Notes: generated from the sequence alone by a model not told the origin. A stretch of 64,000 bases of DNA from Candidatus Woesearchaeota archaeon (GCA_018652625.1 JABIBT010000021.1:14502-78501), one strand, 5' to 3'. Numbered from the stretch's first letter, positions 1 through 60,139 are shown. A program made the numbers and translations.

Positions 1-3000
1 TAATGTTCCTAAAATCAAATGTGAAGCTGAAGGAGGAATCCCATTTAACTCTCCAAAAGAATCGGTTCCAGAATGTCAGCTAGGCTGTTGTGATACTGGC
101 GGAGTTTGTACTGTTGTTGAAAATAATGAATGTTTGGGTAATTTTAATGCGGGGCAAACTAATCAAATATTATGTAGTCAATCTTGTTCACCAAGTCAAC
201 TTGGTTGTTGTGAAATGGTTGGAGATTGTTCGTATACTACTTTAGGACAGTGTGATATTGGGAACTCTAATGTTTTAGATTTTTATGGTGGAGAACTTTG
301 TTCTGGGGTAACTTCTTGTGCTGCAAGAGTTGATTCACATGCTTACCAAGCTTGTGGGGACAATAATTTACAAGGAGAAACAAGACATAAAATATATTTT
401 TATGATTCTGCTGGGAATAGGGAGGAGTTAGTTAAGGATTGCGAATATCCTGATGAAACTTGTGATGATCCGGATGGAAAAGGAGGAGAAATTGATGCTG
501 AATGTAGAACAACTGCTTGTGTTTTGGAAGGAGATTGTCCAGACTGTGATATTCAAGAATTTCTAAACGGTGACAGTATTTGTTTAATTTTACACGAAGG
601 ACATTTCTATAATGATGGAAGAAGTAAAGGATTGATTGAAAGAGTTTTAACTTGTAATGCTGGAGTTGTTGAATCTACTCATGATTTAGATAGGGATAAT
701 GAGGTGTGTATAGAAGGCAGTCAAACTTTTGGAGAACTTACTAGAAGAACTTCAAAAGTTATAGATAATAATTGGGGGCAGTGTAGTAGTTGTGGAAGTG
801 GATTTGATTTAGATGCATTTGCATTTTTACCATATTTGGGTGCAGGAATTGTTGCTTTAGGTTCATCTTGTCAAGAACCTATAGATTGGGATTTTGCTGG
901 AAATTGGAAATTAGGAGAAGATTGTAAAGATAGAGGCAAGGTTGGGGATGTTGAAATGTGTGAATATGATCACGATTTATATGCTCCAATTGGGTCCTGT
1001 AATCCAATTTATCCTCCTGCTATAAGTACTGAAGATCAATGTAATAAGTGCGGGGGCGGAGGAGATAGTTTTACGAATGCCTGTACGATTGAAGAGTGTA
1101 ATGCTTTAGGAGATTGTCAGTTTGAGCATAATAATTTAGATTGGAATGGTTTATACAATGCTGGCTTATTAGCTGTTGGTACAGCTACTGCAATAGTTAG
1201 TATTGGATGGGCGGTATGTTCATGGATTCCAGGATTGTGTGCAGCACCTCCTTATTGGGGAACAATTATGAATATTTTAGTTACCGGTGGTTGGTGGAGT
1301 GCAGCTTATTGGGTAGGATTTAGTTTGGTGGTTGGCCAAGGAGCAACATTGGCTAATCCAGATCCACGTTATGATTTTGCTTTTAGAAATGAAGATGATA
1401 GTATTAATTTAGCATGGGGGTTAGCTTTGTCTAATTCAATTGCAAAAGAGATTGAAGAAATTGGTTGGGTAGATCCGGGGATGAGCAGTAGAGGAACTTC
1501 TGAGGGTAGAGCACTTTTATTGGCGGTCTTAAGTGGAATTAGTAACCCAGAGACATTTAGTTCTATAGTTGGAGCATTGGCTGCCCCAATTGGTAGGAAG
1601 ATGTTGAGTTGGGGATTGGAGAGGACAATAAGGAATTATTTAAGAGATGCTGCTTTTGCTGCTACTGATCCAGCTTCTGTTATAGAAGCAGGTATTGTTA
1701 ATGCACTAAAAGGACAAAGTGGACTTAGTAGTGGGCCATTTGCGATAGGAGAGGGTGCTATGGAATATGCAGCAGAACATGCTGCCCAAGCATATGTTGG
1801 TGGGGTCGGTATAGAAACTGCTTCAGAAGTTGGAGCATTGGCAGGCAGTGAAGCTGCCGCAACAGAAACGGTAAAACAGGCAGGAAGTAAATTACTTACA
1901 GCTTTACAAATTATAGGGGCACTGGTTAGTGTTTATACTGTTGCACAAAGTTTGAATACTGGAAATTGTAGGCCAGAAGAAGCATATATAAATAATGATA
2001 GATGTGCCCAGTGTGGTGGAGGAGAAGGACAATGGGCATGTACTCCTATAAGATGTGATATTTTGGGAGGAGGAGATTCTGTTAATAATCCGATTCATTG
2101 TAAATTTTTGCCCGGAGATAGTCCAGATGAAGGGGTTTGTGAACCTTTAGACGTTGATGATACAGCTCTTCCTAACATAGTTAAGGTTGAGGCAACACTA
2201 TTTGATTCTAATGATGATTACGTTAGACAAGAAGGCCCAGTTGATTCTAATAAATTAGAGATAACTGAAAACTTTGATTGGCCAGAATTGGGAAAAATTA
2301 CTTTATCTATTGAAACTAATGAAAGGGCGAATTGTAAATATAGTAAAAATAGTGAAACAGAATATGAAAGTATGAATGCTTTTGACGTTGGAAATTATCC
2401 CTTATCTAATCATGTTAATATTACTTATACCGAAGAGGATAAATCCGAGGAAGATGTCAGAGTGTATATTAAATGTGAGGACCTTAATGGAAACAAACAC
2501 GCTAAAACAGATGATTATAATTACTTAGAAGTGCATTTCAATGAAAGGCCAGATGAATTTCCACCAGAAGTTAGAATAGTTTCTCCTGGTAATAATGTTA
2601 GATTGCCAGAGAGCACTACCCAAATAGAATGGATTATTAATGTAAAAGAAAATAATGGAATTGCTGGATGTAGATATACACAAAGTGGAGTATCAACCTA
2701 TGAAGAAATGGAATCTTCTTTTACATTAATAGGAGATGTTTCATGTATAGGAACAGATTATACTTGTACCGAATATGGAACGACTTTAAATCTGGTGGAT
2801 TTAGAGTATCTTGATATGGAAGAATTAACTGGTGTTGAAGGAGCAGGGAGGAGTTATGTTTTCAATATGAGTTGTATGGATGGAGCAGGAAATTTCAACA
2901 ATCCGCCTCTTCAAATGGGTTTTGTTGTGATACCTACTTTTGCATTAACAATATTATCTCCAATAGATGGAAGTGAATCATATGAATCAAATCCATTGAT

Positions 3001-3454
3001 AGAAGTGCAAACAGATTCATTAACACTTTGTGATTATAAAATGGATGGTCAGGAGTATAATTTTAGTGTAGATGAACCTGGATTTTATTATGATTATAGC
3101 ATCGTGCATCCTGATGCATTAAGTGGAAGTCCTTCTGGAACAAGACACACTTTAGAAGTTACTTGTACTGATGATGCATTCAATACAGTTAGTGAGTCTG
3201 TTGAATTTTATGTGATTCAAGATGTTAATGCTCCAAAATTAGTAAGCATTTATGATAAGAATAGTAAGCTATTTGTTGTTTTAGACGAAGAGGCAACTTG
3301 TACTTATCATACAAGTAATGTAGAAGAAACTCCTATGGTCCCTTCAGTAAATACGTTTAAACACCAATTAAGTTTAGATCCAGACACTTTAATTTATCAT
3401 ATTAGTTGTTTAGACGTTTGGAATAATGAATTAGCGTTTATTGTGTATGTATAA
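1..3454 (+). CDS. Giant cysteine-rich modular envelope protein; its N-terminus lies beyond the left window edge (more than 1150 aa).
   Basis: The frame is open from nt 2 to the TAA at 3452-3454. The ORF-track start at 134 is an internal TTG. Residues encoded upstream of it (ECQLGCCDTGGVCTVVENNEC) repeat the motif found after it (SQLGCCEMVGDC). The translation shows three parts: a Cys-rich N-part, a hydrophobic plus Ala/Gly-rich insert, and four C-terminal repeats of about 90-120 aa. I recognise no family. Confidence 0.6.
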   Translation, partial: NVPKIKCEAEGGIPFNSPKESVPECQLGCCDTGGVCTVVENNECLGNFNAGQTNQILCSQSCSPSQLGCCEMVGDCSYTTLGQCDIGNSNVLDFYGGELCSGVTSCAARVDSHAYQACGDNNLQGETRHKIYFYDSAGNREELVKDCEYPDETCDDPDGKGGEIDAECRTTACVLEGDCPDCDIQEFLNGDSICLILHEGHFYNDGRSKGLIERVLTCNAGVVESTHDLDRDNEVCIEGSQTFGELTRRTSKVIDNNWGQCSSCGSGFDLDAFAFLPYLGAGIVALGSSCQEPIDWDFAGNWKLGEDCKDRGKVGDVEMCEYDHDLYAPIGSCNPIYPPAISTEDQCNKCGGGGDSFTNACTIEECNALGDCQFEHNNLDWNGLYNAGLLAVGTATAIVSIGWAVCSWIPGLCAAPPYWGTIMNILVTGGWWSAAYWVGFSLVVGQGATLANPDPRYDFAFRNEDDSINLAWGLALSNSIAKEIEEIGWVDPGMSSRGTSEGRALLLAVLSGISNPETFSSIVGALAAPIGRKMLSWGLERTIRNYLRDAAFAATDPASVIEAGIVNALKGQSGLSSGPFAIGEGAMEYAAEHAAQAYVGGVGIETASEVGALAGSEAAATETVKQAGSKLLTALQIIGALVSVYTVAQSLNTGNCRPEEAYINNDRCAQCGGGEGQWACTPIRCDILGGGDSVNNPIHCKFLPGDSPDEGVCEPLDVDDTALPNIVKVEATLFDSNDDYVRQEGPVDSNKLEITENFDWPELGKITLSIETNERANCKYSKNSETEYESMNAFDVGNYPLSNHVNITYTEEDKSEEDVRVYIKCEDLNGNKHAKTDDYNYLEVHFNERPDEFPPEVRIVSPGNNVRLPESTTQIEWIINVKENNGIAGCRYTQSGVSTYEEMESSFTLIGDVSCIGTDYTCTEYGTTLNLVDLEYLDMEELTGVEGAGRSYVFNMSCMDGAGNFNNPPLQMGFVVIPTFALTILSPIDGSESYESNPLIEVQTDSLTLCDYKMDGQEYNFSVDEPGFYYDYSIVHPDALSGSPSGTRHTLEVTCTDDAFNTVSESVEFYVIQDVNAPKLVSIYDKNSKLFVVLDEEATCTYHTSNVEETPMVPSVNTFKHQLSLDPDTLIYHISCLDVWNNELAFIVYV

Positions 3455-3960
3455 TGAAAAAAAAAGGACAATTATTTGGACAACCGATTATGTATGTTTT
3501 TTACGCCGTTGTAGCTATTTTAGTTTTGGTTTTTGGTATTAGGATTGCCATACAACTAAATGAGAAAAGTGATTTACTTAAAGAAGAAATTTTTTTCAGT
3601 GACCTCGAAGAGAAATTTGATTCTGTTTATAGGGATAGTTATGGAAGTTCAATAAGTTTGATAGATTTGAAAGTCCCTTCAAATTTTATTGAACTTTGTT
3701 TTATGGATATTGGTCAGGAAAAAGATTTAAGCGAGGTTACTTTAACTAGGCTAAATGATTTAATTGATGCTTCTTATGATGCTGAAGTGGATGATAATGT
3801 TTTTGTTATTAAAGCTGATCAGAAGGACTTATCTGTTGAGATAGGGAGATATTTTGTTCTGGAGGGAAATGCTTCTGTTTTGTGTGATAAACTAACTGAT
3901 GGAAAATTAGATATTAAATTAGTTAACGAAGGACAAGTTATTAGAGCACAACATATATAA
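3454..3960 (+). CDS. Pilin-like protein with an archaeal class III (prepilin-type) signal peptide.
   Basis: The N-terminus MKKKG|QLFGQPIMYVFYAVVAILVLVFGI is a short basic leader, then G|Q, then about 22 hydrophobic residues. The ATG overlaps the upstream stop (TAATG), which suggests translational coupling. Confidence 0.65.
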   Translation: MKKKGQLFGQPIMYVFYAVVAILVLVFGIRIAIQLNEKSDLLKEEIFFSDLEEKFDSVYRDSYGSSISLIDLKVPSNFIELCFMDIGQEKDLSEVTLTRLNDLIDASYDAEVDDNVFVIKADQKDLSVEIGRYFVLEGNASVLCDKLTDGKLDIKLVNEGQVIRAQHI

Positions 3961-3983
3961 ATAACAAATCCAATTTTTTCTTT

Positions 3984-4814
3984 ATGAATAAAAAAGGACA
4001 AGGTGTTCAGTTTAATTGGATTTTTATTGTAATTGCAGGAGTTTTTGTTCTAATGTTTTTTTTGGGTTTTTTAGTTAAATATATGGATATCCAAGATTCT
4101 AAACAAAATGCCCAATATGGTTGGGATTTTAAGAACCACATTTTGGGGTTGAAAAGTACTGAACAATATAGTAATTTTTCTGCACCAAGATTTAAGATTA
4201 ATTATGATTGTGAAAATATAATTATTAATGGGGATCAAGGGTTTAGTATGCCTTACTCTATTTTTATGGAAGAGATTGATTCTGGTGAGATTTTATTTTG
4301 GGTTGAAGAATATCATAAAGGATTTTTAGTTGATAGAGTTGTTTTTATTTCTGATGCTAGCAAAAAGTATTATTTTGATGAAGAGTATAGGAGTAATATC
4401 CCTCCAAATATTAGATTGGTTTCTAGTGCTTCTAATGCTGATGTTGTTGTAAGTTCTGATCCTTTAAAAGTTGTTGATGAGCGAGATAGAAAAGAAATAT
4501 TTGTTAATAATGGAATGATTGAATTTGTCGACGATGGTGAGCGATTCCTTTATGATAATGATTTTTTTATCTATGGGGCAGCTTTTTCTAATTCTGAAAT
4601 CTTTAAGTGCACGCAAGATGATTTAGAAGAAAGATTTGATATTTTATCTGAGCTGTATATTTCTAAAATTTCTTATTTATCTTCTTCACAAAGTGCTTCG
4701 TGTACTCCATTATATAATACTCTTAGAAATGCTTTAACTTTTTCATTAACTGCTGCTGAAATAAAATCTTCAAATGATAATTTAATTAATTATGGTTGCG
4801 AGGTGGTATTTTGA
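3984..4814 (+). CDS. Pilin-like protein with a class III signal peptide (276 aa).
   Basis: The N-terminus is MNKKG|QGVQFNWIFIVIAGVFVLMFFLGF. It is on the same strand as the neighbouring pilin-like genes and tightly packed with them. Confidence 0.65.
   Translation: MNKKGQGVQFNWIFIVIAGVFVLMFFLGFLVKYMDIQDSKQNAQYGWDFKNHILGLKSTEQYSNFSAPRFKINYDCENIIINGDQGFSMPYSIFMEEIDSGEILFWVEEYHKGFLVDRVVFISDASKKYYFDEEYRSNIPPNIRLVSSASNADVVVSSDPLKVVDERDRKEIFVNNGMIEFVDDGERFLYDNDFFIYGAAFSNSEIFKCTQDDLEERFDILSELYISKISYLSSSQSASCTPLYNTLRNALTFSLTAAEIKSSNDNLINYGCEVVF
4800..4806 (+). promoter_or_regulatory. Shine-Dalgarno-like GAGGTGG serving the internal start at 4811.
   Basis: GAGGTGG lies 4 nt upstream of TTG 4811. That TTG overlaps the upstream stop (TTGA). 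Confidence 0.5.
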
Positions 4815-5263
4815 AAAGAGGACAATTACAAATACAGGAAAGTATATTTGTATTGTTTGTTTTCTTTATTATTTTAGTTATTGGCATGGTTGTTTTTTAT
4901 CAAATGGAATTTAGAAGTATTGAACGAATGAGAAAAGAAAATGAAGATGTTACTTTTTATTATTTAATATCTTATGTTCCTGCTATGCCAGAAGTAGTTT
5001 GTTCTGAAAAAGGAATTGTTGAAGAATGTATTGACTTGGTTAAGGCAAGGGCGTTTGCTAGTTACGATAATGATTATTACAGAAAAATATTTGGTAACAG
5101 GAAAATTATTTTGAATGCCGATGGAGAAAAGATAGAACTGTATGATTTTGAACCTTCTAAGTACTCTGCTGAGAGAATAATTTCAACTCCAGTTAGTGTG
5201 TATAATCCTAGAGATAAAAGTTATACTATTGGAAAATTAGAGGTGCATGATTATGAAAACTAA
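4811..5263 (+). CDS. Pilin-like protein with a class III signal peptide.
   Basis: I moved the start from the ORF-track TTG 4796 to TTG 4811. This gives MKRG|QLQIQESIFVLFVFFIILVIG, matching the short leaders of its neighbours. The SD at 4800-4806 and the TTGA overlap support this start. Confidence 0.6.
   Translation: MKRGQLQIQESIFVLFVFFIILVIGMVVFYQMEFRSIERMRKENEDVTFYYLISYVPAMPEVVCSEKGIVEECIDLVKARAFASYDNDYYRKIFGNRKIILNADGEKIELYDFEPSKYSAERIISTPVSVYNPRDKSYTIGKLEVHDYEN
5240..5245 (+). promoter_or_regulatory. Shine-Dalgarno-like GAGGTG serving the start at 5253.
   Basis: GAGGTG lies 7 nt upstream of the second ATG (5253) and only 1 nt upstream of the first ATG (5247). Confidence 0.5.
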
Positions 5264-5663
5264 AGGACAAATAGATATGTTTGGTTTGGTAATAATAGTT
5301 ATACTTATAGTTATGATTGGATTATTTTCTTTATTTTTTATTTCTCGAGGACAAATTGATGAAAGAGAAGAATATTATTCCTACAAAGCTAATAATTTTG
5401 CTAATGCGTTATCTAAATATTCTCGTGGGAATTTAAATTTTAAGGAAATGGTTTTGGAGTGTTGCACTGGAAGTAGATGTGAAGATTTGTTAGACTTTGT
5501 TGAAGATAATTTTGCTTATGTTGATGAGCCGGTTAGTTTTGAAATAGAATGTGCTAATTCTGATTATTCTGGTTCTCGAGGGAGCTGCAGTAGTGGAATT
5601 GCCTCAGAGTCCATAATTCTGCAGTCTGGGGACCTAATTCGAGTAAATTTGTGTAGAAAATAG
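5253..5663 (+). CDS. Pilin-like protein with a class III signal peptide.
   Basis: The N-terminus is MKTKG|QIDMFGLVIIVILIVMIGLFSLFFI. It overlaps the upstream gene by 11 nt. The C-terminal part contains several Cys residues. Confidence 0.6.
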   Translation: MKTKGQIDMFGLVIIVILIVMIGLFSLFFISRGQIDEREEYYSYKANNFANALSKYSRGNLNFKEMVLECCTGSRCEDLLDFVEDNFAYVDEPVSFEIECANSDYSGSRGSCSSGIASESIILQSGDLIRVNLCRK

Positions 5664-5740: not shown

Positions 5741-5748
5741 TTTATAAA
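5741..5748 (+). promoter_or_regulatory. Candidate TATA box (TTTATAAA) of the S-layer gene, which implies a leader of about 110 nt.
   Basis: This octamer also sits 28-33 nt upstream of many start codons in the window. Here it lies 141 nt upstream of ATG 5882. Confidence 0.45.
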
Positions 5749-5858: not shown

Positions 5859-5878
5859 ATTAACATGGAGGTGTTAAT
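5859..5878 (+). promoter_or_regulatory. Perfect 7-bp hairpin that presents the Shine-Dalgarno GGAGG in its loop, 3 nt before the S-layer ATG.
   Basis: ATTAACA (5859-5865) and TGTTAAT (5872-5878) are exact reverse complements. The 6-nt loop is TGGAGG. GGAGGTG spans 5867-5873. Confidence 0.55.
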
Positions 5879-5881: not shown

Positions 5882-7975
5882 ATGAAAAAATTTATTAGAA
5901 GAGTTGCTGCAGTCGGTATGGGTTCAGCTATGTTATTAGGAACATTTGGCGGAGCACTAGCGGCTAACGAGACTCTAGCAGATTTACCTGCACCATTCGT
6001 TGTGAACGAAGCATATGCTGACGTTGCAATGGTTGTTGGTTCCTTAGCTGGTACCGATGATAATGCTGCAAGATCTGCATTAAAGACATATTTCGACGGA
6101 GAAGCAACAGCTGTTGCTGGAGACACATCCTTGAGTACTGATGCCTATAATAGGGAATTCTACTATGAGTCTGAATTCAATGGAAGTACTCAATTTGGAA
6201 CAGAAGTAGACGATGAAAAAGTGGATACTTTGTATGATGGTAAAATTGACTGGGGTGACAAGTCCTATGATGTTAGAGAACTAATCAACTTTACTGGCGG
6301 AGCTAAAATTAGTACTAGTGTTAATTCGACAGGAGTGAAGGAGTTTGCCGGAGATCCATATGTAACTTTTGAATCAGGGTCTGTTAGCTATCTGTACTAC
6401 TTTGATACACTTTTTGAAGAAAATGCTTCCAGTAGTCACAATTTGAGTTCTACTACGCCTTTAGAATTTACTTTTTTAGGTAAGGATGTAAAGATATCAG
6501 ATGTAAGTACTACTGCAGATACCATTTCTTTGAATATGGCTGATGAATTTACTTTCAAAGAAGGCGAAGTACAAACCATAGAGGGAAGTTCTGTTACTGT
6601 AGGAAGTATCTTTGAATCTTCTGTAGAAGTGACTTTAGATGGTGTTACAAAAATTGTTAGTTCCGGAAGTAGCCATGATTTTGGAGACTTAACTGTTAAG
6701 GTCGACACAATTGGATATAATTCGAACAATCCAGATTTAAGTAAAACTATCTTGAATGTTGGAACTAAGATTAGTGATACTGTAAGTGATGGAGAAGTCT
6801 TTGAATTATTTACTGACTATGATCCAGATAACAATGCCCCTTGGGAATGGGAGATTAGAACAGGTAACACTGCTGCAGGACACTGGATTTCTTGGGTTGG
6901 TGTAACTTTGAGATTGGCAGCAGATGATTTAGATGTTGGAGATACAGACTCTAATCCAGATCCATTTGGAGTAGGAGGTTCATTTGTATTTCCAAATAAT
7001 TATGTAGCTATATCTTTCGATGAAACAACAGATACAAGTTATTGTAAGATAACTATTGAAGCATTGGCTGATAAAGACATAAACTCTTCTGCTGGATCTA
7101 GCGCAAACGGAGACAATACAGACTATCTTCATTTTGTTGGAGATGAAACTAATTGTTTTGCAATTGGAGGCGTAGATACTAATGCTATTTATGCTTTGGA
7201 GCGAAACGATACTTCAGTTGCTTGGGATTTGTGGTATGAAGACAGCGAGGGTATTAAGAAGAACTCTACTGAGACTACGTTTAACATAGATTGGGATGAT
7301 ACAATTATGGCAGTATCTTTTATTAATAACACTGCATCAAATCACCACTATGTCAATATCTCGAAAGACACTAACGCAGATTCTAGAGATGAAAGTATCT
7401 TTTTGAATGTGTCAAGTGGAATTCAAGAATTTGGAACAACAGAAGACTTTGATTCAGGTGAAAGAGAGGTTTTCTATTCTTGGACAACTAGGCCTCAAGG
7501 AGTTGGGATAATAGATCTTTCTGGAAGAGATTACCAAGCATTAACAATGTATGGTGTGATTATTGGAGATGACGGATCTGATGTAGAAGATGATTTAGAT
7601 GCAGATAAGGTGGTTATCCATGTGCCAAATAATCGAGCCCAAGCAGTAGTATCTATTGGTGCTGGTGCACAAGTTACTGGTGGAGCAGTTGTTGAACCTG
7701 CATTAGTTAATGATGCAAGTGCAGCAGGATATAACAACTTAATCCTTGTAGGTGGACCTTGTGTAAACGAGTTAACAGCAGATTACTTAGGACTAGATTT
7801 CCCTTCATGTGAAGGTGTTTCTGGAATACTAGAGAACAAGGCGATTGTTCAATTAGTTGAATCTGGTGGAAAAACTGCATTGATTGTAGCTGGATGGGAA
7901 GCTGCTGACACAAAGAGAGCTGCTGACACAGTTGCTGCAGGCGGATTAACAGGTGCAGACATTATCGTAGAGTAA
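5882..7975 (+). CDS. S-layer protein of the Methanococcales/Thermococcales type (S_layer_N / S_layer_C-like ends).
   Basis: There is a Sec signal peptide, MKKFIRRVAAVGMGSAMLLGTFGGALA|ANE. The N-terminal DVAMVVGSLAGTDDNAARSAL and the C-terminal NLILVGGPCVNELTADYL ... TALIVAGWEAADTKRAADTVAAG match my memory of conserved S-layer ends. The protein is acidic and rich in Thr/Ser/Asn, has about a dozen N-x-S/T sequons, and has a strong SD. Confidence 0.7.
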   Translation: MKKFIRRVAAVGMGSAMLLGTFGGALAANETLADLPAPFVVNEAYADVAMVVGSLAGTDDNAARSALKTYFDGEATAVAGDTSLSTDAYNREFYYESEFNGSTQFGTEVDDEKVDTLYDGKIDWGDKSYDVRELINFTGGAKISTSVNSTGVKEFAGDPYVTFESGSVSYLYYFDTLFEENASSSHNLSSTTPLEFTFLGKDVKISDVSTTADTISLNMADEFTFKEGEVQTIEGSSVTVGSIFESSVEVTLDGVTKIVSSGSSHDFGDLTVKVDTIGYNSNNPDLSKTILNVGTKISDTVSDGEVFELFTDYDPDNNAPWEWEIRTGNTAAGHWISWVGVTLRLAADDLDVGDTDSNPDPFGVGGSFVFPNNYVAISFDETTDTSYCKITIEALADKDINSSAGSSANGDNTDYLHFVGDETNCFAIGGVDTNAIYALERNDTSVAWDLWYEDSEGIKKNSTETTFNIDWDDTIMAVSFINNTASNHHYVNISKDTNADSRDESIFLNVSSGIQEFGTTEDFDSGEREVFYSWTTRPQGVGIIDLSGRDYQALTMYGVIIGDDGSDVEDDLDADKVVIHVPNNRAQAVVSIGAGAQVTGGAVVEPALVNDASAAGYNNLILVGGPCVNELTADYLGLDFPSCEGVSGILENKAIVQLVESGGKTALIVAGWEAADTKRAADTVAAGGLTGADIIVE

Positions 7976-8046: not shown

Positions 8047-8520
8047 ATGAAAAAAAACAGAAACAAATTATACATTGGATTATTTATTGTATTTTTGATG
8101 GTATCTAGTACTATTGGATTTTTATATAGTTCTGAGGATTCAAAAAAAGTAAATGGAAATAAATTTACTTTAACAGATAAAGGATGGCAGCTTTATTCCG
8201 GTGGAAATTATTGGTATTTTGATTATTTGCCTAGTGAACTGAATTTTGAATCAGATATGAGAACAATATCAAATTTGGTTTATGTTTCTGTTTTGGATAA
8301 TCAATATTTTTATGAAATAAGTAATAAGTTTGCTTTGTTGGGAGTAGTTGTAGAAAGGGTTAGTTTGGAAGAAATAGATTGTGATACGGAAATTACTACA
8401 TTAGTATTTATGTATGAGAATGACAATAAAATTTATAAAGAAGGTAGTTGTGTCTATTTTGAAGGGCGAGAGGATATGCTCATTGATAAATTATTTTATG
8501 AAATGTTGGGAGTGATTTGA
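8047..8520 (+). CDS. N-terminally anchored hypothetical protein, paralog of the next gene.
   Basis: A single N-terminal TM segment is present (LYIGLFIVFLMVSSTIGFLY). The C-terminal motif ENDNKIYKEGSCVYFEG ... LFYEMLGVI is shared with the downstream ORF. Confidence 0.5.
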   Translation: MKKNRNKLYIGLFIVFLMVSSTIGFLYSSEDSKKVNGNKFTLTDKGWQLYSGGNYWYFDYLPSELNFESDMRTISNLVYVSVLDNQYFYEISNKFALLGVVVERVSLEEIDCDTEITTLVFMYENDNKIYKEGSCVYFEGREDMLIDKLFYEMLGVI

Positions 8521-8521
8521 T

Positions 8522-9178
8522 TTGGAGAAAAAACAGGAAAAAATAATAGTGGTTGTGTTGATTTTAGTTATATTAGCACTAGCCTTTGGAATTAGTTATT
8601 CTGTTTATTCAAGAACAAGTAAAGAATATACTTATTTAGGACCGGCGGGAAACTTTTCTTTTGTTTTAGATAGACATACTGGAAATGATGTGCATATTTT
8701 AGCTTTGCCTTACATGCCAAATAGTTTATGGGAAAAAACTTTTTTGATTCCTTTTAATTATGGCCCAGAAGAGTTGGAAGGGATTTATACGGAAGAGGTT
8801 AGAGAATTGATTATTGATTCGCCAGAAATTTATATGGTTAGAGATGTTTATTTAGATGAGAAGACACAGAATAATATAGCTGTTGCTATATTGAATGTAG
8901 ATAGAGTTGTTGGTCAAGATATGTTAACTCCTCCAATTTATAATATTCCTATTACGTTTGGAGCTATTGAAGAAAATAGTTTGTCTCAAGGACTTGGTTT
9001 ACAAGTCATGACCTGTGAAGATGCTCACGCAGTTACAACCGTAATTTGGTTTAAGGAAGGAACTGAAAATAAAATCTATAAAGAAAATGAGTATTGTGTT
9101 GTTGTTGAATTTAAAGAAGGAGAGAATCCAATAAAATCTGCAACTAGATTAGTTTATCATATAACTGGAGTTATGTAA
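8522..9178 (+). CDS. N-terminally anchored hypothetical protein, paralog of the previous gene.
   Basis: The TTG start is 1 nt after the upstream stop. The TM segment is IIVVVLILVILALAFGISYSV. The shared motif is GTENKIYKENEYCVVVEFKEG ... LVYHITGVM. Confidence 0.5.
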   Translation: MEKKQEKIIVVVLILVILALAFGISYSVYSRTSKEYTYLGPAGNFSFVLDRHTGNDVHILALPYMPNSLWEKTFLIPFNYGPEELEGIYTEEVRELIIDSPEIYMVRDVYLDEKTQNNIAVAILNVDRVVGQDMLTPPIYNIPITFGAIEENSLSQGLGLQVMTCEDAHAVTTVIWFKEGTENKIYKENEYCVVVEFKEGENPIKSATRLVYHITGVM

Positions 9179-9208
9179 GTTGTCAGCTTGCCATGCACGG
9201 GGAAATAA

Positions 9209-9216
9209 TTTATAAA
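9209..9216 (+). promoter_or_regulatory. TATA box (TTTATAAA) for the LAGLIDADG ORF.
   Basis: It lies 29 nt upstream of ATG 9238. This spacing implies a leaderless or near-leaderless mRNA. Confidence 0.55.
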
Positions 9217-9237
9217 CTACTTCTAATTTTTTATTAG

Positions 9238-9873
9238 ATGGATTTGAATAAACTGGCTTTATTTTTAGGTATGTTAGTTGGAGACGGTTCTATATCAAAC
9301 AGAAAAAATGGTTTTGGGTATCCTACTTATTCAGTTGCTTTTTGGAATACTCGAAGGGAATATGTGGATTTATTCTCAAACCTTAATTCTGATTTATTTG
9401 ATTCTGAGGGCAAGATAAATCCACGACACAGGCCAAATAAGAAAGTACTTTATGAATTTCGTATTTACTCAAAACCTATTTTTGATTATCTTGTTGATGA
9501 TGTTGGAATTCCTTCTGGGAAAAAGGCTGCGATAGTTAAGATCCCAAAGATAATACTTAAATCAAATAATGAGGTTAAGAAATATTTTTTTCTTGGTTTA
9601 TTTTTGACAGATGGTGGATTAAATAAGCGAGGAAATCTCCATTTTCATATGGCCAGTAGGGAGTTATTATCGGGATTGAGTGGTATGATCAAAGATATTT
9701 GGGGATTTGATAAAGAAGTTAAAAATGTTATACAAAAAAATAAATATTTTTCTTATCAGTTAAATTTAAATATGGATGAAAGTAGCGTTGTATTACATGA
9801 CTTATGCCGGGATCGCATAATCTGGTATTGCACTGATTCAGCTGAGTTAGTCTCTCTGAAGTGTAAGCCTTGA
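9238..9873 (+). CDS. Double-motif LAGLIDADG homing-endonuclease-like protein; its 3' end reads into the tRNA-Ser gene.
   Basis: There are two LAGLIDADG motifs, LALFLGMLVGDGSI and YFFLGLFLTDGGL, and both keep the acidic residue. The last 68 nt of the ORF (9806-9873) are tRNA sequence. Confidence 0.7.
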   Translation: MDLNKLALFLGMLVGDGSISNRKNGFGYPTYSVAFWNTRREYVDLFSNLNSDLFDSEGKINPRHRPNKKVLYEFRIYSKPIFDYLVDDVGIPSGKKAAIVKIPKIILKSNNEVKKYFFLGLFLTDGGLNKRGNLHFHMASRELLSGLSGMIKDIWGFDKEVKNVIQKNKYFSYQLNLNMDESSVVLHDLCRDRIIWYCTDSAELVSLKCKP

Positions 9874-9933
9874 AATAATACGCAGGTTAGCCAGGCCCTA
9901 ACGGGCATCTGGGTTCAAATCCCAGTCCCGGCG
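9806..9933 (+). tRNA. tRNA-Ser(UGA) with two BHB introns: 31 nt at position 29/30 (9836-9866) and 14 nt at 37/38 (9875-9888).
   Basis: The ends are identical to the intronless tRNA-Ser at 60140-60220. Removing the two segments gives an 83-nt class II tRNA with anticodon stem CTGGC/GCCAG, loop CTTGAAA and variable arm GCCC-TAAC-GGGC. Both segments lie in bulge-helix-bulge geometry (detailed in the findings). An oligo-T tract follows. Confidence 0.8.
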
Positions 9934-9946
9934 TTTTTAATAAAAC

Positions 9947-9954
9947 TTATAAAT
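9947..9954 (+). promoter_or_regulatory. TATA box (TTATAAAT).
   Basis: It lies 28 nt upstream of ATG 9975. Confidence 0.5.
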
Positions 9955-9974
9955 TAGGTGTTCTTCGCTTTTTT

Positions 9975-11150
9975 ATGGCAAAAATTGTTGCTATTACAGA
10001 GCATACCGGTCCAGGGAAAGCAATTAGAGAAGTTGTGAAGACTTTGAGAGAGGAAAGTGGCATTGAAACTAGTTTATACCCTACAGCTTTAACTTCAAAT
10101 TTATATAGAGATCTCCCTGAACTGAAAGAACTATCAGAAGAACAAGTAAGTACATTAAGAGGAGAACATATGTCTCCAGAGAGTTTAGATTCTTTTGTTC
10201 AATCAATTTTTGAAGAGGAAAAACCAGACTTGATTTTAACTGCTTCTATTGATCCTAGCCCTGCTATTGATAAATCTATGATAAGAGAAGCAAATAAAAG
10301 AGATATACTTAGTATAGCAGTTATGGACTACTGGAGTAGTCCCGACTTATACGGGAAAAGATTCCCTTCTAAAGAGTTTTATCCTACTAAAATAGCTTCC
10401 TTGGACGATATAGATACTGAAAATTTAATTTTATCAGGGATTCCTAAAGATATAATAGTAATTACTGGAAATCCAAATTTTGATGGTTTAAAGATGGCTA
10501 GAAGGGCATTTGAAGGTAAAGAAAAGGCGTTTAGACCGTTTGATTTAAATCCAACAAACATACTAGTTACTTATGCTCCAGATCCCTTACATAGTGATTT
10601 TCTTCCCTTTGACGAGGCATATAAGATAAACAGAGATACATTTGATTCTATGGCTTGCGGACTTTCAAGAGTTTCAATGGATAATAGAAAGAAGGTTGAT
10701 CTTGCTGTTATGTTACATCCTAAAGATATTAGGGCAGAAGGAGGAATTGATAGTTGGAAAGAGATTTTTAAACTGAATCAAGCCGGATATGTAAATTCTT
10801 TTTTGGGTAGAGAGAGCATGGAAGACACTAGAGTTAATTTAGATAATGCCAGATTGAGTTCTAATTTGGTTATGTCTGGTAGAAGCACTTCTGGAGCCGA
10901 ATGTTTGTATTTGGGTAGTCCGGTTATGATACTTCACCCTGGTTTGGAATTTTATAGAAATGGTCTTAATCATTTTATTGAAAAAGGAATTATACCTGCT
11001 GCAAATTCTATTGAAAGTGGAATCGATCAAATTTATAGATTTTTCTCTAACTCTAAATTTAGAGAAAATTGTCTTGGAAGACAGGAAGTTTATAAAAATC
11101 AACCAGATTCTTCTCCCAGGGTTGTAGAATTAATAAAAAGTATGTTATAA
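9975..11150 (+). CDS. Hypothetical protein that may have a GT-B fold (sugar-nucleotide epimerase or glycosyltransferase-like).
   Basis: Only weak resemblance supports this: ITGNPNFDGL and SGRSTSGAECLYLGSPVMIL look like Rossmann-type GT-B enzymes. I can name no diagnostic motif. Confidence 0.3.
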   Translation: MAKIVAITEHTGPGKAIREVVKTLREESGIETSLYPTALTSNLYRDLPELKELSEEQVSTLRGEHMSPESLDSFVQSIFEEEKPDLILTASIDPSPAIDKSMIREANKRDILSIAVMDYWSSPDLYGKRFPSKEFYPTKIASLDDIDTENLILSGIPKDIIVITGNPNFDGLKMARRAFEGKEKAFRPFDLNPTNILVTYAPDPLHSDFLPFDEAYKINRDTFDSMACGLSRVSMDNRKKVDLAVMLHPKDIRAEGGIDSWKEIFKLNQAGYVNSFLGRESMEDTRVNLDNARLSSNLVMSGRSTSGAECLYLGSPVMILHPGLEFYRNGLNHFIEKGIIPAANSIESGIDQIYRFFSNSKFRENCLGRQEVYKNQPDSSPRVVELIKSML

Positions 11151-11168
11151 TAAAAAAAAATAAAAAAA

Positions 11169-12476
11169 TTAAAGTTTTTTCTTCTTTTTAGTTATTGTTA
11201 TGTAAGCCACTATTGCTACTATTATTATTGCAGCAATAACGATCCATGTTGTTGAGCTTCCACTTGTTTCTGCTATGTCTTCAGGACTTTCTCTAACCGG
11301 AGTTGTATCCACTGGTTCTTCAGTTTCTGTTGTATCTTCTGTAGTTGTAACTTCTTCTGGTGTAGTGTAAGCCCTAAATGTAATTTCGGCTGTACTTCCA
11401 TCAATATTATTTAGAGTTATGGTTAAATCATTTGAACCATCCTCATCTAAATCGAAGTTTTTAGTTTTTCCTACATCAATAGTTGTTGTTATTGGTGTAG
11501 AAGATACAGTTATTTTTGCAGTGTCATCATCCACAATGCTGTTTAATTTAAGACTGTGTGAGTCTCCATTGTAGTTGAAATCTACTGTTTTTCCAGTGCT
11601 TATTTCTTTTTTAGTTCCAGTTATACCAAAGTCATCAATATCTCCAAGGTCTTCGTTAGAAGATCCACTTGGACCAGAGCCAGTTCCTTCTGAAGATTCT
11701 TCTTGTGCTGTATATACATTGTATATTAGAGATGTTCCAAGCCGGTTGGTTACATTGTCGTAACAGCCTATATACCATTGTAGTGGCCTTCTCATGTAAG
11801 ATGAATTTAGCGCCACATTAAATGATTTAGTTTGTGTATTAGCTGTACTATTCAAGGCCGCTGTCCCATTGTATCCAGTTGTCCCATTTATCACCCCTCC
11901 AAAATATAAAGAACAATTAGCTACATCACTAGATTTATCTGATACATTGTATGTAAAATTCACTATTCCATCCATGTCTTCACTGTTGTGCACAGGGCTT
12001 ATTAGTACAATTACTGGTGCGTCAGCATCTACCCCAAAAGTTATATTGCCAGTCATGTTATGACTCACATTTCCACCGACAACTGCACTGTTATTTGTTC
12101 TAATCCAACAATTCCAAGACCAGTTTAGTCCAATACTATTGGGTATTGTTGTTGAAAAGTTTCTAATCACTGTGGCTCCGACTGTTCCATTTGTAGCATT
12201 TGTAGTATTCAAGTAGACAATAGGTGTACCGCTGGTAAGATTCCATACAACTAACGTTACGTTGTCTACATAATCAGTTGCATTAATTGGACTACCAGTA
12301 CAGTTAAAACCAAGGGTTGTAGTATTACTCCAGTTTCCTGCACTAACACCTTCTCCTTCACCAAGAGTGTAATTTAACCTAACCTCTTTTACTCCGGTTC
12401 CTAACCCTGTGTTTACACCATATAGCAAAACAATAAGAGCCATTATAACAATAACACCTCTCTTTATATTCACCAT
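11169..12476 (-). CDS. Secreted, C-terminally anchored surface protein with extreme N-glycosylation sequon density.
   Basis: It has an N-terminal signal/TM segment (VIVIMALIVLLYGV). By hand count there are 24 N-x-S/T sequons in the first ~245 aa. A Thr/Glu/Pro linker follows, then the C-terminal TM WIVIAAIIIVAIVAYITI and a KKKKKL tail. Confidence 0.6.
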   Translation of the reverse strand: MVNIKRGVIVIMALIVLLYGVNTGLGTGVKEVRLNYTLGEGEGVSAGNWSNTTTLGFNCTGSPINATDYVDNVTLVVWNLTSGTPIVYLNTTNATNGTVGATVIRNFSTTIPNSIGLNWSWNCWIRTNNSAVVGGNVSHNMTGNITFGVDADAPVIVLISPVHNSEDMDGIVNFTYNVSDKSSDVANCSLYFGGVINGTTGYNGTAALNSTANTQTKSFNVALNSSYMRRPLQWYIGCYDNVTNRLGTSLIYNVYTAQEESSEGTGSGPSGSSNEDLGDIDDFGITGTKKEISTGKTVDFNYNGDSHSLKLNSIVDDDTAKITVSSTPITTTIDVGKTKNFDLDEDGSNDLTITLNNIDGSTAEITFRAYTTPEEVTTTEDTTETEEPVDTTPVRESPEDIAETSGSSTTWIVIAAIIIVAIVAYITITKKKKKL

Positions 12477-12516
12477 TTTTATAATCTTGTAGATATATTG
12501 TCAATTATAAGCTTTC

Positions 12517-13992
12517 CTATGCTATAAGTATAGATTTTCTAGCTAAGGATTTTGCATATTTTAGTTTTGTTTTAGAATCAGAATAAATTGTCATTACTTT
12601 TTCTCCTCTTTTTACTTTTTGGTTTAGTTTTTTGTATAAATAGATTCCTGCTTCTTTGTCATGCGGTGCACCAGCTATTCTAGATATTCTAGATATTACT
12701 TTGTTGTCTATTTCTTTTATTTTTCCAGTTTTACTTGACTTCATAGTATATTCAAATTTTCCCAAAGCTATAGAATCTGGAATTATTTTTGGATCTCCTT
12801 CTTGTTCTTCCATTATCTTCATAAATTGAGTGTAGGCTTTGCCAGAATCTAGTATCTCTCTTGCAGATGCTTTAGTTTTTGTCATTTTAAATATCAAGTC
12901 AGACATATGAACTGCCTTTTCTTCTAAATCTTTTGGTGCTCTTGGATCTTTTCTTAATATGTAAAGAATATCTTTAGCTTCTAGATTTGGACCGATTCCA
13001 TTTCCAATGGGTTGAGAACCATCTGTTATTATTACTTTGATTTTTATTTTTATTTTCCTTCCCAATCTTTCAAATGATTTTTTTAAAGACATAGCTTCTT
13101 TTTTTGTTGTAATTTTTGCTGTTTTTCCAATTGGAATATCTATTAGTATGTGGGTTGAATTAACTGCTAATTTTTTTGATAGAATTGAAGCTAACATAAT
13201 TCCTTTTGGATCAAGTCTTAAAGGATGTCTAACTTTGATTAGTTTTTCGTCTGCTGCAGCCAAGTCTATTGCTCCACCCCAAACTATGCATCCATTTATT
13301 TTTTTTATTATTTTGACTATTTTTTCAATAGGAAAAGTTACGTTGGATAAAACCTCCATTGTGTCTGCAGTTCCGGCAGGAGAAGTTATAGATCTAGAAC
13401 TTGTTTTTATCATTGGAACACCTGCTGCCGTTACAATAGGAACTACTAACATTGTTGTTCTATTATTTGGTACTCCTCCAATGCAGTGTTTGTCAGCAAT
13501 TATTTTTCTGTTAAAATCTATTTTATCTCCATGTTTAGTAATTGCTTCTATTAGATATGCTGTTTCTTTAAATGATAAATCTTTTTTATAACATGCTGAA
13601 ACGAAATAAGTTAGTTCAATTTCTGTTAATTCCCCATCTATAAGGTCTTTTATTATTATTTCTATTTCTTTTTTTGTTAATTCTTTTTCATCTAATTTTT
13701 TTCTTATTATTTCTATAGAATGCGGAATAGTTGTACTTAGTACTCCCAAAGTTGTTTGTTTTTTTATTCCCAACTCTTTTATTACTTCCTTGAATAGGCC
13801 TATTTGTCCTTTTTTTATTCCATTATTACTTTCAGAGATATCTATTGCTGTGACTACTGATTTTCTTCCATGTTTTATTTTTAGTCTGTCTAATGGTTGT
13901 AAATCTAGTTCTTCTGCGTCTAACCTGTTTAGAATTACAATAAGTGGTCCGCCAGTAGATATTTTTATATCTTTAGACTTAAGTCTCAACAT
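12517..13992 (-). CDS. deoA: AMP phosphorylase (thymidine phosphorylase family, archaeal DeoA type).
   Basis: It matches the Thermococcus AMPpase pattern closely: HCIGGVPNNRTTMLVVPIVTAAGVPMIKTSSRSITSPAGTADTMEV and VWGGAIDLAAADEKLI. I set the start at M15 (MLRLKSK, ATG 13992) rather than the ORF-track 14034. It overlaps the upstream permease by 14 nt. Confidence 0.85.
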   Translation of the reverse strand: MLRLKSKDIKISTGGPLIVILNRLDAEELDLQPLDRLKIKHGRKSVVTAIDISESNNGIKKGQIGLFKEVIKELGIKKQTTLGVLSTTIPHSIEIIRKKLDEKELTKKEIEIIIKDLIDGELTEIELTYFVSACYKKDLSFKETAYLIEAITKHGDKIDFNRKIIADKHCIGGVPNNRTTMLVVPIVTAAGVPMIKTSSRSITSPAGTADTMEVLSNVTFPIEKIVKIIKKINGCIVWGGAIDLAAADEKLIKVRHPLRLDPKGIMLASILSKKLAVNSTHILIDIPIGKTAKITTKKEAMSLKKSFERLGRKIKIKIKVIITDGSQPIGNGIGPNLEAKDILYILRKDPRAPKDLEEKAVHMSDLIFKMTKTKASAREILDSGKAYTQFMKIMEEQEGDPKIIPDSIALGKFEYTMKSSKTGKIKEIDNKVISRISRIAGAPHDKEAGIYLYKKLNQKVKRGEKVMTIYSDSKTKLKYAKSLARKSILIA

Positions 13993-15004
13993 TTTCCTCT
14001 TTTTCTTCCATGTAAAGTTTGTATAATAAGACAAATAGGGAGAGTATCAATGGTCCAATTATCAATCCAACTATTCCAAATAAAAGTATTCCTCCAAAAA
14101 TTCCAAGTAATGAAATTATAGGATTTATTTTTGCTGTTTTCTTTATTAGTTGTGCCCTTAGTATGTTGTCCATGTAAAAGCTTAGAACTAAAATGAAGTA
14201 AATTGCTATGAATATTGCTTGTCCAGTTTTTCCAGTTATGAATAAATATATTACTGATGGTGCCCAGACTGCTGCAGGCCCAAGAAGCGGAATATATGCA
14301 AAGATTGCAATTATTAATGACCAGAGTAATGCGTTTTCTATTCCTCCTATAGAAAAACCAATGAATGCAGCTATGAATTCTGCTATCCCTAAAGCTAAGA
14401 AACCTAGGAAGATACCATTAATTTTATCTACTGTTCCCTTAAACAGTCTTGTTTTTTGATATTCAGATAATGGAAGACTTTTTCTAATCTCTCTTAGGAT
14501 TCCCTTCCCATCTCTCAAAAAGAAGAACATTATGAAAAATGTTGTAAATAAATGTACAAATCCTGTGGCTAGAAATCTTATCATGTCGCTACTGGATCTT
14601 ATAAAAAAGTTTGAAGCTTCTTTAACTGTTTCTTTTACATACCTATCAAACTCAATATTTAGACCAGTCATTTCTTTTAGCCTTTCTGAAGGAGTATGAA
14701 AGTCCATTGTTCCAATAGAATTGTGAATTGTTATTGCTTCATGTAATAATGTATTTGAAAAGAATAATGCAGGAATTGTTATAAGAAGTACTACAAATAA
14801 AGTTACCAACAAGGCGGATAATGTTTCTTTTCTTATTTTATTATCTAGTTTTTTGTGTAGTGGGTATGCTACTATCGCTAATACCATTGCTGCTAAAATT
14901 GCTCCAACAAATGGAGAAATAATCTTATATGAAACATATATGAATGCTGTTAAAATTATAATGAAAAGAACTTTTCCATAGTCCTTTAAGCTTATAGTTT
15001 TCAT
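13979..15004 (-). CDS. Polytopic membrane protein, AI-2E/PerM (UPF0118)-like permease.
   Basis: It is 341 aa with about 8 predicted TM helices, and its length and topology are typical of UPF0118. The family assignment is from memory, with no diagnostic motif. Confidence 0.45.
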   Translation of the reverse strand: MKTISLKDYGKVLFIIILTAFIYVSYKIISPFVGAILAAMVLAIVAYPLHKKLDNKIRKETLSALLVTLFVVLLITIPALFFSNTLLHEAITIHNSIGTMDFHTPSERLKEMTGLNIEFDRYVKETVKEASNFFIRSSSDMIRFLATGFVHLFTTFFIMFFFLRDGKGILREIRKSLPLSEYQKTRLFKGTVDKINGIFLGFLALGIAEFIAAFIGFSIGGIENALLWSLIIAIFAYIPLLGPAAVWAPSVIYLFITGKTGQAIFIAIYFILVLSFYMDNILRAQLIKKTAKINPIISLLGIFGGILLFGIVGLIIGPLILSLFVLLYKLYMEEKEENVET

Positions 15005-15047
15005 AGTAGGAAGTCTGGAATCTAAATTTATAAACCTTTTGTATGAT

Positions 15048-17727: not shown

Positions 17728-17790
17728 ACTTTATTTTATTTTTAACTCTTTAAAAACTTTTTCTTGTGAAATGAAGACTATTTCGCAAGA

Positions 17791-17798
17791 TATATAAA
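17791..17798 (+). promoter_or_regulatory. TATA box (TATATAAA) for cysQ.
   Basis: It lies 29 nt upstream of ATG 17820. Confidence 0.55.
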
Positions 17799-17819
17799 AG
17801 GAAATGGGTTGCTATTTTT

Positions 17820-60114: not shown

Positions 60115-60139
60115 TGTTGTGAAGGTTTTATAGGGTCAT

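Follow-up and report, generated by a model that had tools for sequence, protein, structure and literature searches.

A giant cysteine-rich gene at the edge of a 64,000-nucleotide (nt) stretch of DNA from a Candidatus Woesearchaeota archaeon (GCA_018652625.1 JABIBT010000021.1:14502-78501; the whole stretch is called the window below) most likely encodes, judging from sequence, a core component of the cell envelope or of a contact machine in Woesearchaeales-type archaea. The product, which we call the giant, is most likely a real disulfide-rich surface protein of a DPANN archaeon of the Woesearchaeota type, its disulfides and its export both being predictions. It is inherited, and probably transcribed and translated, together with five prepilin-like proteins. 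Our tentative reading, held at somewhat less than even confidence, is that the giant and these five proteins form one envelope complex resembling a type IV filament, in which the giant would be the large non-pilin subunit. This reading draws on an analogy with a bacterial operon. Few uncultivated archaea are as widespread as the Woesearchaeota and Pacearchaeota, and to our knowledge nobody knows how they build their envelope or touch their presumed hosts.

The giant protein and its modules

The gene occupies positions 2..3454 of the + strand, where frame 2 runs without interruption from nt 2 to a TAA at 3452-3454. A first-pass annotation of the window had noted that this frame is open from the edge, had put the protein at more than 1150 amino acids (aa) and had proposed recovering the missing 5′ end from the contig. 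A near-identical public contig, NODE_141 of ENA ERZ4200985 (locus L001), supplies that end and bears the estimate out: the full-length protein, P0001, has 1,247 residues, and the window enters it at residue 98. The window version (residues 98-1247) differs from P0001 by a single residue (GGVC vs GGGC). Residues 1-97, upstream of the window, comprise a Sec-type signal-like N-terminus (MLTGYKERIAVFLILVVVFSFFNIIAIAPKEVSA) and six further cysteines. At the other end the final A of the stop codon is also the first base of the ATG that starts the following gene (gtataATGaaa, 3450-3456), which is the TAATG overlap that had been reported, and all the sequence motifs that the annotation quoted could be found at their positions.

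The giant has no credible family in Pfam or NCBIfam, with only sub-threshold hits to Big_7 (E 0.025) and a pteridine reductase. The PDB was searched by sequence with the giant alone and with profiles built for it and for two of the pilin-like families, and again nothing credible emerged; matches to a pteridine reductase (E 0.0011 over 58 residues), to centrin (E 0.23) and to a Fab chain were dismissed. The suggestion of a metalloprotease, raised by the ‘HEGH’ in LILHEGHF, was dropped because the histidines are not kept in the family consensus. The initial description of a protein of ‘no recognisable family’ holds for curated libraries, but the giant does belong to a very large, uncharacterised family.

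The N-terminal head is exceptionally rich in cysteine. The cysteine share is 9.2% in the N-terminal ectodomain and 3.4% in the C-terminal one, compared with 0.88% in 56 other open reading frames (ORFs) of the window. A hand count of about 29 cysteines in some 330 residues proved exact, with 29 in the first 330 window residues and 35 in the first 381. When 24 full-length homologues are aligned, about 45 cysteine columns prove invariant, and we conclude from these that the pattern is selected and does not reflect chance. Together with the N-terminal signal and the immunoglobulin (Ig)-like domains described below, the invariant cysteines support the predicted export of the giant.

The head is made of recognisable parts. 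Two small homologous cysteine modules carrying L-G-C-C-x3-G-x-C (65..325, +; residues 119-205) are related to one another with an hhalign probability of 79% (Mc/Md) and are modelled by AlphaFold2 as beta-hairpins (strands E27-40 and E67-80). They are followed by the core of the head (326..1021, +; residues 206-437), which has invariant columns, the conserved acidic motifs YDSxGN, DPDG and YDxD and no N-glycosylation sequon. In a model of the whole giant, built from an alignment of 29 sequences, the predicted local distance difference test score (pLDDT) averages 70.8 and is about 70-85 in the head. A separate model of the head scores 74.2; it lies mostly at 80-90 up to window residue 260 and at 50-65 over most of the remainder. 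Foldseek found no fold match for the head model alone in the PDB (best E 0.3) or BFVD (best E 0.05), and sequence searches against Pfam, NCBIfam and the PDB place it in no family. As the head has no known fold, a solved structure would be new. The complete head (window 2-1144, +; 444 aa) has no N-x-S/T sequon, compared with 12 in the neighbouring S-layer protein and 24 in another surface protein, and it may be kept free of glycans, for example as a binding interface.

Two cysteine knots bracket the middle of the protein. Knot 1 (C-x2-C-G-G-G...ECNALGDC; 1022..1144, +; residues 438-478; motif at nt 1037-1117) is the most conserved segment of the giant, with a mean pairwise column identity of 0.55. 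Knot 2 (C-x2-C-G-G-G-E-G-Q-W-x-C...C-D-I-L-G; 1961..2170, +; residues 751-820; motif at nt 2000-2077) also has invariant cysteines. The two had been described as similar brackets around an insert, and they are homologous (hhalign probability 85.5%, E 5.6e-6).

The bracketed middle is of a different character. It starts with two Gly/Ala/Trp-rich helices (1145..1345, +; residues 479-545), a candidate membrane hairpin, and it continues as an acidic Ala/Gly-rich loop of 180 aa (1346..1885, +; residues 546-725) and ends in a third helix (LLTALQIIGALVSVYTVAQSL; 1886..1960, +; residues 726-750). The helices themselves map to nt 1166-1246, 1274-1336 and 1892-1954. The hydrophobic, Ala/Gly-rich insert is therefore present as first described, but its helices are just moderately hydrophobic: their 19-residue Kyte-Doolittle maxima are 1.65-1.82, with 1.82 for the pair (1.45-2.23 across 24 homologues) and 1.65 for the third. 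AlphaFold2 models the middle (window residues 414-625) as helical at a pLDDT below 50, calling the first two helices with low confidence and placing the third within a long helix, H604-650 in window numbering. The loop, also with a pLDDT below 50, is the least conserved part of the giant, with 46% identity to the closest relative (P0002) where all other regions have 76-93%. Its net charge is negative in each of 24 homologues (198 Lys and Arg against 503 Asp and Glu). Among relatives the middle region (residues 479-750) varies from 162 to 407 aa, while both ectodomains are constant in length.

Is this middle embedded in the membrane? On its sequence we consider this plausible. Two distant paralogues, P0029 and P0031, have two unambiguous transmembrane (TM) helices at the same position (Kyte-Doolittle 2.0-3.6) with a short Gly/Ala loop between them, and because of this clear pair the most economical topology is one in which the N-terminus is outside, a helical hairpin enters the membrane and the C-terminus is outside again. 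This topology would also fit a middle loop that is acidic like the ectodomains. Across 168 family members the Kyte-Doolittle count of TM helices is heterogeneous, ranging from 0 to 5.

The C-terminal part consists of four tandem Ig-like beta-sandwich domains (2171..3451, +; D1 2171-2551, D2 2552-2935, D3 2936-3226 and D4 3227-3451), as recognised with AlphaFold2, Foldseek and hhalign. They follow knot 2 at a pLDDT of 80-92, and each has one conserved cysteine pair; the C-x-D motifs of the repeats lie at nt 2468, 2867, 3158 and 3401. The annotation had listed four C-terminal repeats. Profile-profile comparison with hhalign shows that these are homologous, with five of the six pairs at probabilities of 71-96%; D2 and D3 match each other at just 15.5%, yet each matches both D1 and D4. 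When the complete model was compared with the PDB, Foldseek matched it only to tandem-Ig proteins, at E 1e-12 to 1e-9 (Sidekick, titin, the GhpA grappling hook, SiiE and protocadherins). We set these matches aside as a clue to function, as they are generic. Pfam Big_7 scores 15.7 bits on the giant, below its cut-off of 24.1. Some relatives do carry precomputed matches to Big_13 (PF19077), DUF4625 (PF15418) or Y_Y_Y (PF07495), which would assign the repeats to the common Ig-like superfamily.

A conserved envelope gene cluster

A word-indexed search yielded 32 homologues with lengths near 1,200 aa, and an exhaustive profile search of 1.84 billion cluster representatives gave 5,540 matches at E<=1e-3. 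Of these, 1,641 reach E<=1e-30 and are mostly 1,000-1,400 aa long. The giant fits the family as we define it here: a signal peptide, a cysteine-rich head, knot 1, a hydrophobic or variable middle, knot 2 and four Ig-like domains in 1,000-1,400 aa. All named relatives are ‘hypothetical protein’ entries of Woesearchaeota, Nanoarchaeota, Nanoarchaeia or unclassified archaea, apart from one that is automatically labelled ‘PT domain-containing protein’. The first-pass annotation had spoken of an episymbiotic archaeon with a small genome, and the relatives, all from metagenome-assembled genomes (MAGs) of Woesearchaeota, Pacearchaeota or Nanoarchaeota, support a small-genome DPANN archaeon. A scan of viral contigs found no relatives, and an origin in a virus or mobile element was rejected; the conserved chromosomal neighbourhood, with PCNA, TFS and the gene for RNA polymerase subunit L, agrees.

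Across 20 species-level genomes the gene order is conserved in every contig with sufficient flank, including a Pacearchaeota genome at 29% identity. Contigs of 296-814 kb are available for genomes with the cluster. It reads p216, TFS, PCNA, a pilin-like gene, the giant, four pilin-like genes, the S-layer gene and two genes for TM proteins. The first-pass annotation had named a loss of linkage between the giant and the pilin-like genes in relatives as something that would refute its idea; the linkage persists in all loci whose flanks are long enough, also at 22-29% identity, and start and stop codons usually overlap. The same cluster occurs in three deeper relatives (22-26% identity), together with a second, paralogous giant before the first pilin-like gene. 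In these lineages the strong TM pair belongs to the extra, upstream giant; the copy that takes the place of the window gene is weakly hydrophobic in its middle.

Some details of individual loci can be added. The paired giants of the deep lineages flank the first pilin-like gene at L022:4349-7681 and 8505-12233, L023:8224-11385 and 12207-16028, and L024:10001-13405 and 14211-18065. Just upstream of the pair in L022 lies a gene for a 552-aa protein with 41 cysteines (2640-4298). An apparently frameshifted giant in L003 was rejected as such, the break being a 100-N assembly gap.

We estimated selection by the method of Nei and Gojobori against a close relative (L025), as the ratio of non-synonymous to synonymous substitution (dN/dS). 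The ratio is 0.085-0.113 for the ectodomains of the giant, 0.019 for knot 1 and 0.46 for the middle loop; it is 0.085-0.127 for the pilin-like genes, 0.071 for PCNA and 0.18 for the S-layer gene, and all of these values are rough because dS is near saturation (0.4-1.6). With this approximation, the ectodomains are under strong purifying selection and evolve about as slowly as PCNA. Slow ectodomains of constant length would fit co-evolving subunits of one structure. Since place and order are kept group-wide under strong purifying selection, we regard the cluster as a core function and not as an accessory adhesin.

The pilin-like genes number five. The four of the earlier account lie downstream of the giant, and a further one, of 290 aa and starting MQKRGQVTIFIILGIVVLAVLAWLFF, lies upstream of it, just outside the window, where its stop overlaps the ATG of the giant by 7 nt; a TTTATATA box stands 23-30 nt upstream of its start. 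Gene 1 (3454..3960, +; 168 aa) begins with MKKKGQ followed by a hydrophobic helix, and its ATG overlaps the stop of the giant. Gene 2 (3984..4814, +; 276 aa) begins with MNKKGQG, again followed by a hydrophobic helix, and has a weak match to Pfam T4SS_pilin (E 0.0013, below the cut-off). Gene 3 (4811..5263, +; 150 aa), called in L001, overlaps the stop of gene 2 and has a TTG start read as M-KRGQLQIQE; its orthologues begin with MKRGQ or MKKGQ. Gene 4 (5253..5663, +; 136 aa; MKTKGQIDMFGLV...) overlaps the end of gene 3, starts with MKTKGQ and has six cysteines. Overlaps thus join the upstream gene to the giant, the giant to gene 1, gene 2 to gene 3 and gene 3 to gene 4.

What these five families share is their N-terminus. 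In all of them [KR]-G-Q at residues 3-10 precedes a hydrophobic stretch, and the motif is kept in 19/20, 14/18, 13/19, 14/17 and 11/15 orthologues, with K-A-Q in most of the others. For gene 1 it is found in 14 of 18 orthologues, with KKAQ variants besides, and in the upstream gene K3, R4, G5 and Q6 are invariant in 14 orthologues (alignment A4). According to hhalign the families are alike solely in this N-terminal region, for example gene 4 and gene 3 at 96% probability. By their sequences all five neighbours would qualify as class III signal proteins, having a short basic N-terminus, G/A at -1 and a hydrophobic helix of about 20 residues. Class III (prepilin-type) signals are cleaved after the glycine by the peptidases PibD, FlaK or EppA.

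Genes 3 and 4 are not adjacent in every relative. A two-gene insert separates them at L025:15537-16471, encoding a nucleotidyltransferase (NTP_transf_2) and a 141-aa protein, which looks like a toxin-antitoxin pair. Similar gaps between pilin-like genes occur in L002 (15544-17588) and L003 (15639-16619); the insert is absent from the window, where the two genes overlap.

The cluster continues with an S-layer gene (5882..7975, +), whose product of 697 aa carries a Sec signal and 12 N-glycosylation sequons and lacks a TM anchor. It matches Pfam S_layer_C (PF05124; 34.0 bits vs a cut-off of 23.9, E 2.9e-8), which identifies it as an S-layer protein of the Methanococcales type, and it matches TIGR01564 weakly (18.3 vs a cut-off of 25). 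The gene is preceded by a spacer of about 220 nt with a T-rich stretch, a TTTATAAA box at 5741-5748 and GGAGGTG at 5867-5873. It appears to have its own promoter. Behind it there are always two paralogous proteins with an N-terminal TM anchor (8047..9178, +), of 157 aa (8047-8520) and 218 aa (8522-9178); hhalign relates the two at 97.7% probability, and their N-termini are plain TM helices without [KR]GQ. The S-layer gene is syntenic in all relatives with enough downstream flank. These three genes are linked to the giant as tightly as the pilin-like genes are, a linkage that the first-pass annotation had overlooked.

A proposed filament-like complex and its alternatives

How might these proteins work together? 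We propose that the giant would be exported by Sec through its N-terminal signal and would fold outside the cell into a disulfide-stapled acidic head of unseen fold and a C-terminal arm of four Ig-like domains. Head and arm would be joined by the two homologous cysteine knots around the poorly conserved helical segment, whose first two Gly/Ala-rich helices most likely form a hairpin that holds the giant within or against the cytoplasmic membrane, so that both ends lie outside. The giant and the five class III signal proteins would be made from a single operon in which start and stop codons overlap. The six proteins might then assemble, via the N-terminal helices of the pilins, into a short priming, tip or pseudopilus complex that acts at or through the S-layer, with the giant as its large exposed subunit for contact. 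Such a complex would be an archaeal counterpart of the bacterial complex of PilY1 and minor pilins, in layout and not in ancestry.

The bacterial system, the priming or tip complex of type IVa pili, is a convenient point of comparison. In Pseudomonas and Myxococcus the Sec-exported non-pilin PilY1, of about 1,150-1,250 aa, is encoded in a tight fimU-pilVWXY1Y2E operon with FimU-PilV-PilW-PilX-PilE. Our cluster similarly packs a Sec-exported (as predicted) non-pilin of 1,247 aa into an operon with five prepilin-signal proteins, and the gene sizes are comparable. However, the giant has neither a vWA domain nor the beta-propeller of PilY1: Pfam gives no match at E<=1, and Foldseek finds only tandem-Ig proteins, and none for the head. 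Unlike PilY1, moreover, it is cysteine-rich and archaeal, has Ig repeats and a central hydrophobic segment, and lies near an S-layer gene with no assembly ATPase nearby. If the analogy of layout holds, the architecture that starts type IV filaments would have arisen independently in archaea.

Closer to home, large ‘adhesin’ or ‘S-layer-like’ accessory proteins with an Ig fold have been described alongside sets of class III signal proteins in archaeal type IV filament loci, and have been proposed to assist filaments in crossing or priming the S-layer (Makarova et al. 2016, PMC4858521; bioRxiv 10.64898/2026.04.22.720090). To go by the passages of these two sources considered here, our cluster resembles such loci in combining class III signal proteins with a large Ig-fold extracellular protein and an S-layer or S-layer-like gene. 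That said, the loci described in those passages centre on an ATPase and a TadC platform gene, neither of which was found in our 64 kb, and the DPANN systems in these surveys (systems 1 and 4A) are also centred on the ATPase (PMC4858521; 10.64898/2026.04.22.720090). The same passages of PMC4858521 and 10.64898/2026.04.22.720090 do not describe a cysteine-rich protein with two ectodomains, or a cluster around a giant. A full-text literature search, which included passages of Nanobdella cell-surface and groundwater multi-omics studies, likewise returned no description of the giant family or its cluster. So far as these passages go, pilin-like sets with large Ig-fold accessory proteins and S-layer or S-layer-like genes are already known, but not the family of giants, the head of its members or the fixed arrangement of the ten genes.

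Several observations weigh against the filament-like complex. A Pfam scan of the seven cluster ORFs and of all other window ORFs of at least 120 aa (about 55 altogether) found no pilus ATPase, TadC-type platform protein or prepilin peptidase in the 64 kb: T2SSE and T2SSF are absent from the scanned ORFs and from the Pfam-annotated gene tables of the related loci, and no ORF of the Peptidase_A24 type occurs among the 55 or so. The assembly ATPase and the platform protein may be encoded elsewhere in the genome. Neither Pfam nor Foldseek finds homology or fold similarity of the giant to PilY1 or to known pilus adhesins, and hhalign finds no similarity between its middle helices and the N-termini of the pilins, which leaves the idea of the middle as a disguised pilin helix without support. 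The helices are borderline in hydrophobicity, and those of the same-position copies in the deep lineages are even weaker, so the giant may not be membrane-anchored at all. Three hydrophobic helices would also make for an odd topology, unless just the first two cross the membrane. The roughness of the dN/dS values counts here as well.

The first-pass annotation had proposed a surface adhesin, or a tip or cap component, that works with the pilin-like proteins. The partnership is supported by linkage. A host-specific, fast-evolving adhesin is disfavoured because the head is uniform, constant in length and strongly constrained, as its low dN/dS indicates. If the giant does touch a host, it would presumably recognise something conserved.

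The first alternative is that the giant helps to anchor or organise the S-layer, in the manner of SlaB. It might tether the anchorless S-layer protein to the membrane or set the width of the pseudoperiplasm, and in a variant of the idea the pilin-like proteins would act like FlaF and FlaG, minor archaellins that bind the S-layer. We consider this unlikely. The S-layer protein has no TM anchor of its own and its gene is found with the giant in every locus with enough flank; the giant is slow and of constant length, as the structural partner of a lattice would be, and a 444-aa head without sequons fits a buried protein-protein interface. In addition, as in the SlaA/SlaB pair, an Ig-containing protein that is predicted to be membrane-associated is encoded near the gene of an anchorless S-layer protein. 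However, the S-layer gene stands outside the translationally coupled unit because of its spacer, which has what appear to be its own TATA box and Shine-Dalgarno sequence, and four pilin-like genes intervene. The two N-terminally anchored proteins directly behind it are more obvious anchors. The S-layer protein also evolves faster than the giant, with a dN of 0.20 compared with 0.07-0.085 for the ectodomains. Finally, no part of the giant is like SlaB, which has a coiled-coil stalk and is anchored by a C-terminal TM helix; the hydrophobic segment of the giant is central.

Somewhat less probable still is a stand-alone surface protein, a generic adhesin or receptor that shares no structure with its neighbours and merely sits in an inherited core-gene synteny. 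Synteny across the class extends to the entire region, with RNA polymerase subunit L, TFS and PCNA, and for this reason conserved order alone is no proof of functional coupling; tandem Ig-like domains are, besides, typical of adhesins. Against this, the overlaps of stop and start codons on both flanks of the giant recur in many relatives, and the exported proteins form a cluster that lies wholly between PCNA and the S-layer gene. The extra giant of the deep lineages likewise lies within the pilin-like set. Strong purifying selection on the head is also unlike an adhesin that tracks different hosts.

A more adventurous alternative, which we think improbable, is that the knot-bracketed Gly/Ala/Trp segment opens host membranes for the uptake of lipids or metabolites, either as a disulfide-stapled internal fusion loop or as the glycine-zipper segment of a pore. 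Its composition recalls fusion peptides and glycine zippers as generally known (e.g. GLLAVGTATAIVSIGWAV and GGWWSAAYWVGFSLVVG), and the two homologous knots would bring its ends together. These organisms lack many biosynthetic routes and have salvage genes. The fusexins (Fsx1) and HAP2, class II fusogens, are similarly cysteine-rich and beta-rich, with archaeal ectodomains and membrane-spanning segments, which in the giant are predicted. Foldseek searches of the PDB and BFVD, however, found neither the three-domain class II fold nor any similarity to solved fusogens, HAP2/fusexin included, or to viral glycoproteins. The giant is chromosomal, core and syntenic, not carried on a mobile element, and it has no relatives in viral contigs. 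The ordinary, strongly hydrophobic TM helices of the paralogues at the position of the segment point to a simple anchor, and there is no heptad-repeat or trimerisation signature, though no formal test for one was made.

Very improbable is metal binding by the cysteines in place of disulfides, in which they would serve as Zn or Fe-S knuckles or as redox centres outside the cell and the protein would have a redox or metal-handling role: the several C-x2-C motifs, the zinc-ribbon-like spacing of the knots (C-x2-C...C-x4-C) and the many relatives from anoxic groundwater or sediment MAGs, as judged from record names, speak for it, but Pfam and NCBIfam give no metal-binding family, the cysteines are spread over beta-rich modules as in disulfide-rich ectodomains, and one conserved pair per Ig-like domain is the classic pattern of an intradomain disulfide.

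Returning to the filament-like complex of giant and pilin-like proteins, a bolder version of it can be formulated. The cluster might be a lineage-wide and hitherto undescribed envelope nanomachine of the Woesearchaeales and Pacearchaeales that spans the S-layer. In it, one or two giants, each with two ectodomains, a hairpin tether and a novel fold in the head, and five prepilin-like subunits would make physical, possibly membrane-active, contact with a host. We consider this bolder version unlikely. If true, it would be the long-sought attachment or uptake organelle of a very abundant uncultivated archaeal group. The cluster spans about 10 kb, or some 1% of a genome of about 1 Mb, which is the typical size for these archaea. 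It also offers nine to ten proteins (one or two giants, five pilin-like proteins, the S-layer protein and two anchors) as targets for metaproteomics, cryo-electron tomography and co-folding.

Other genes of the window

The rest of the window holds genes for AMP salvage and sulfate activation, a large glycan-synthesis island, AglB and SecDF. Directly after the envelope cluster lies a free-standing LAGLIDADG-type endonuclease ORF of 211 aa (9238-9873, +). Related sequence occurs inside much larger ORFs in some relatives (L002 75-2477 and L019 13-4197), which suggests an origin as an intein or homing endonuclease. Further on, an ORF of 435 aa (11169-12476, -) matches no family. Its product has 24 N-glycosylation sequons, a TM helix at the C-terminus and a poly-Lys tail, and is probably exposed on the surface and heavily glycosylated.

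The AMP salvage set (12517-17727, -) consists of an AMP/thymidine phosphorylase-like gene (12517-14034), a form III RuBisCO (15048-16295) and a gene of the IF-2B family resembling ribose-1,5-bisphosphate isomerase (16924-17727), with an AI-2E family transporter and a HAD hydrolase interspersed. Sulfate activation is represented at 18625-21512, 36639-37571 and 39052-39633 by a CysD-like protein with a PAPS_reduct domain, a fusion of CysN with adenosine 5′-phosphosulfate (APS) kinase, a second APS kinase and a sulfotransferase; this combination suggests sulfated surface glycans.

The glycan island (21507-57911) encodes an HldE-like kinase/cytidylyltransferase, a GmhA-like SIS protein, two family-9 heptosyltransferases, NeuB, a UDP-GlcNAc 2-epimerase, a CMP-sugar cytidylyltransferase, a GDP-mannose dehydratase, a DegT aminotransferase, a flippase and AglB/STT3. 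It is unusual for an archaeon to have genes of the heptose pathway. A protein with Laminin_G_3 (concanavalin-like lectin) and CARDB domains (25693-27165, -) is a candidate surface or lectin protein. A further cysteine-rich ORF (60223-61101, -), of 292 aa with 14 cysteines (4.8%) and no Pfam match, lies 2 nt from a tRNA-Ser gene on the opposite strand (60139-60221, +).

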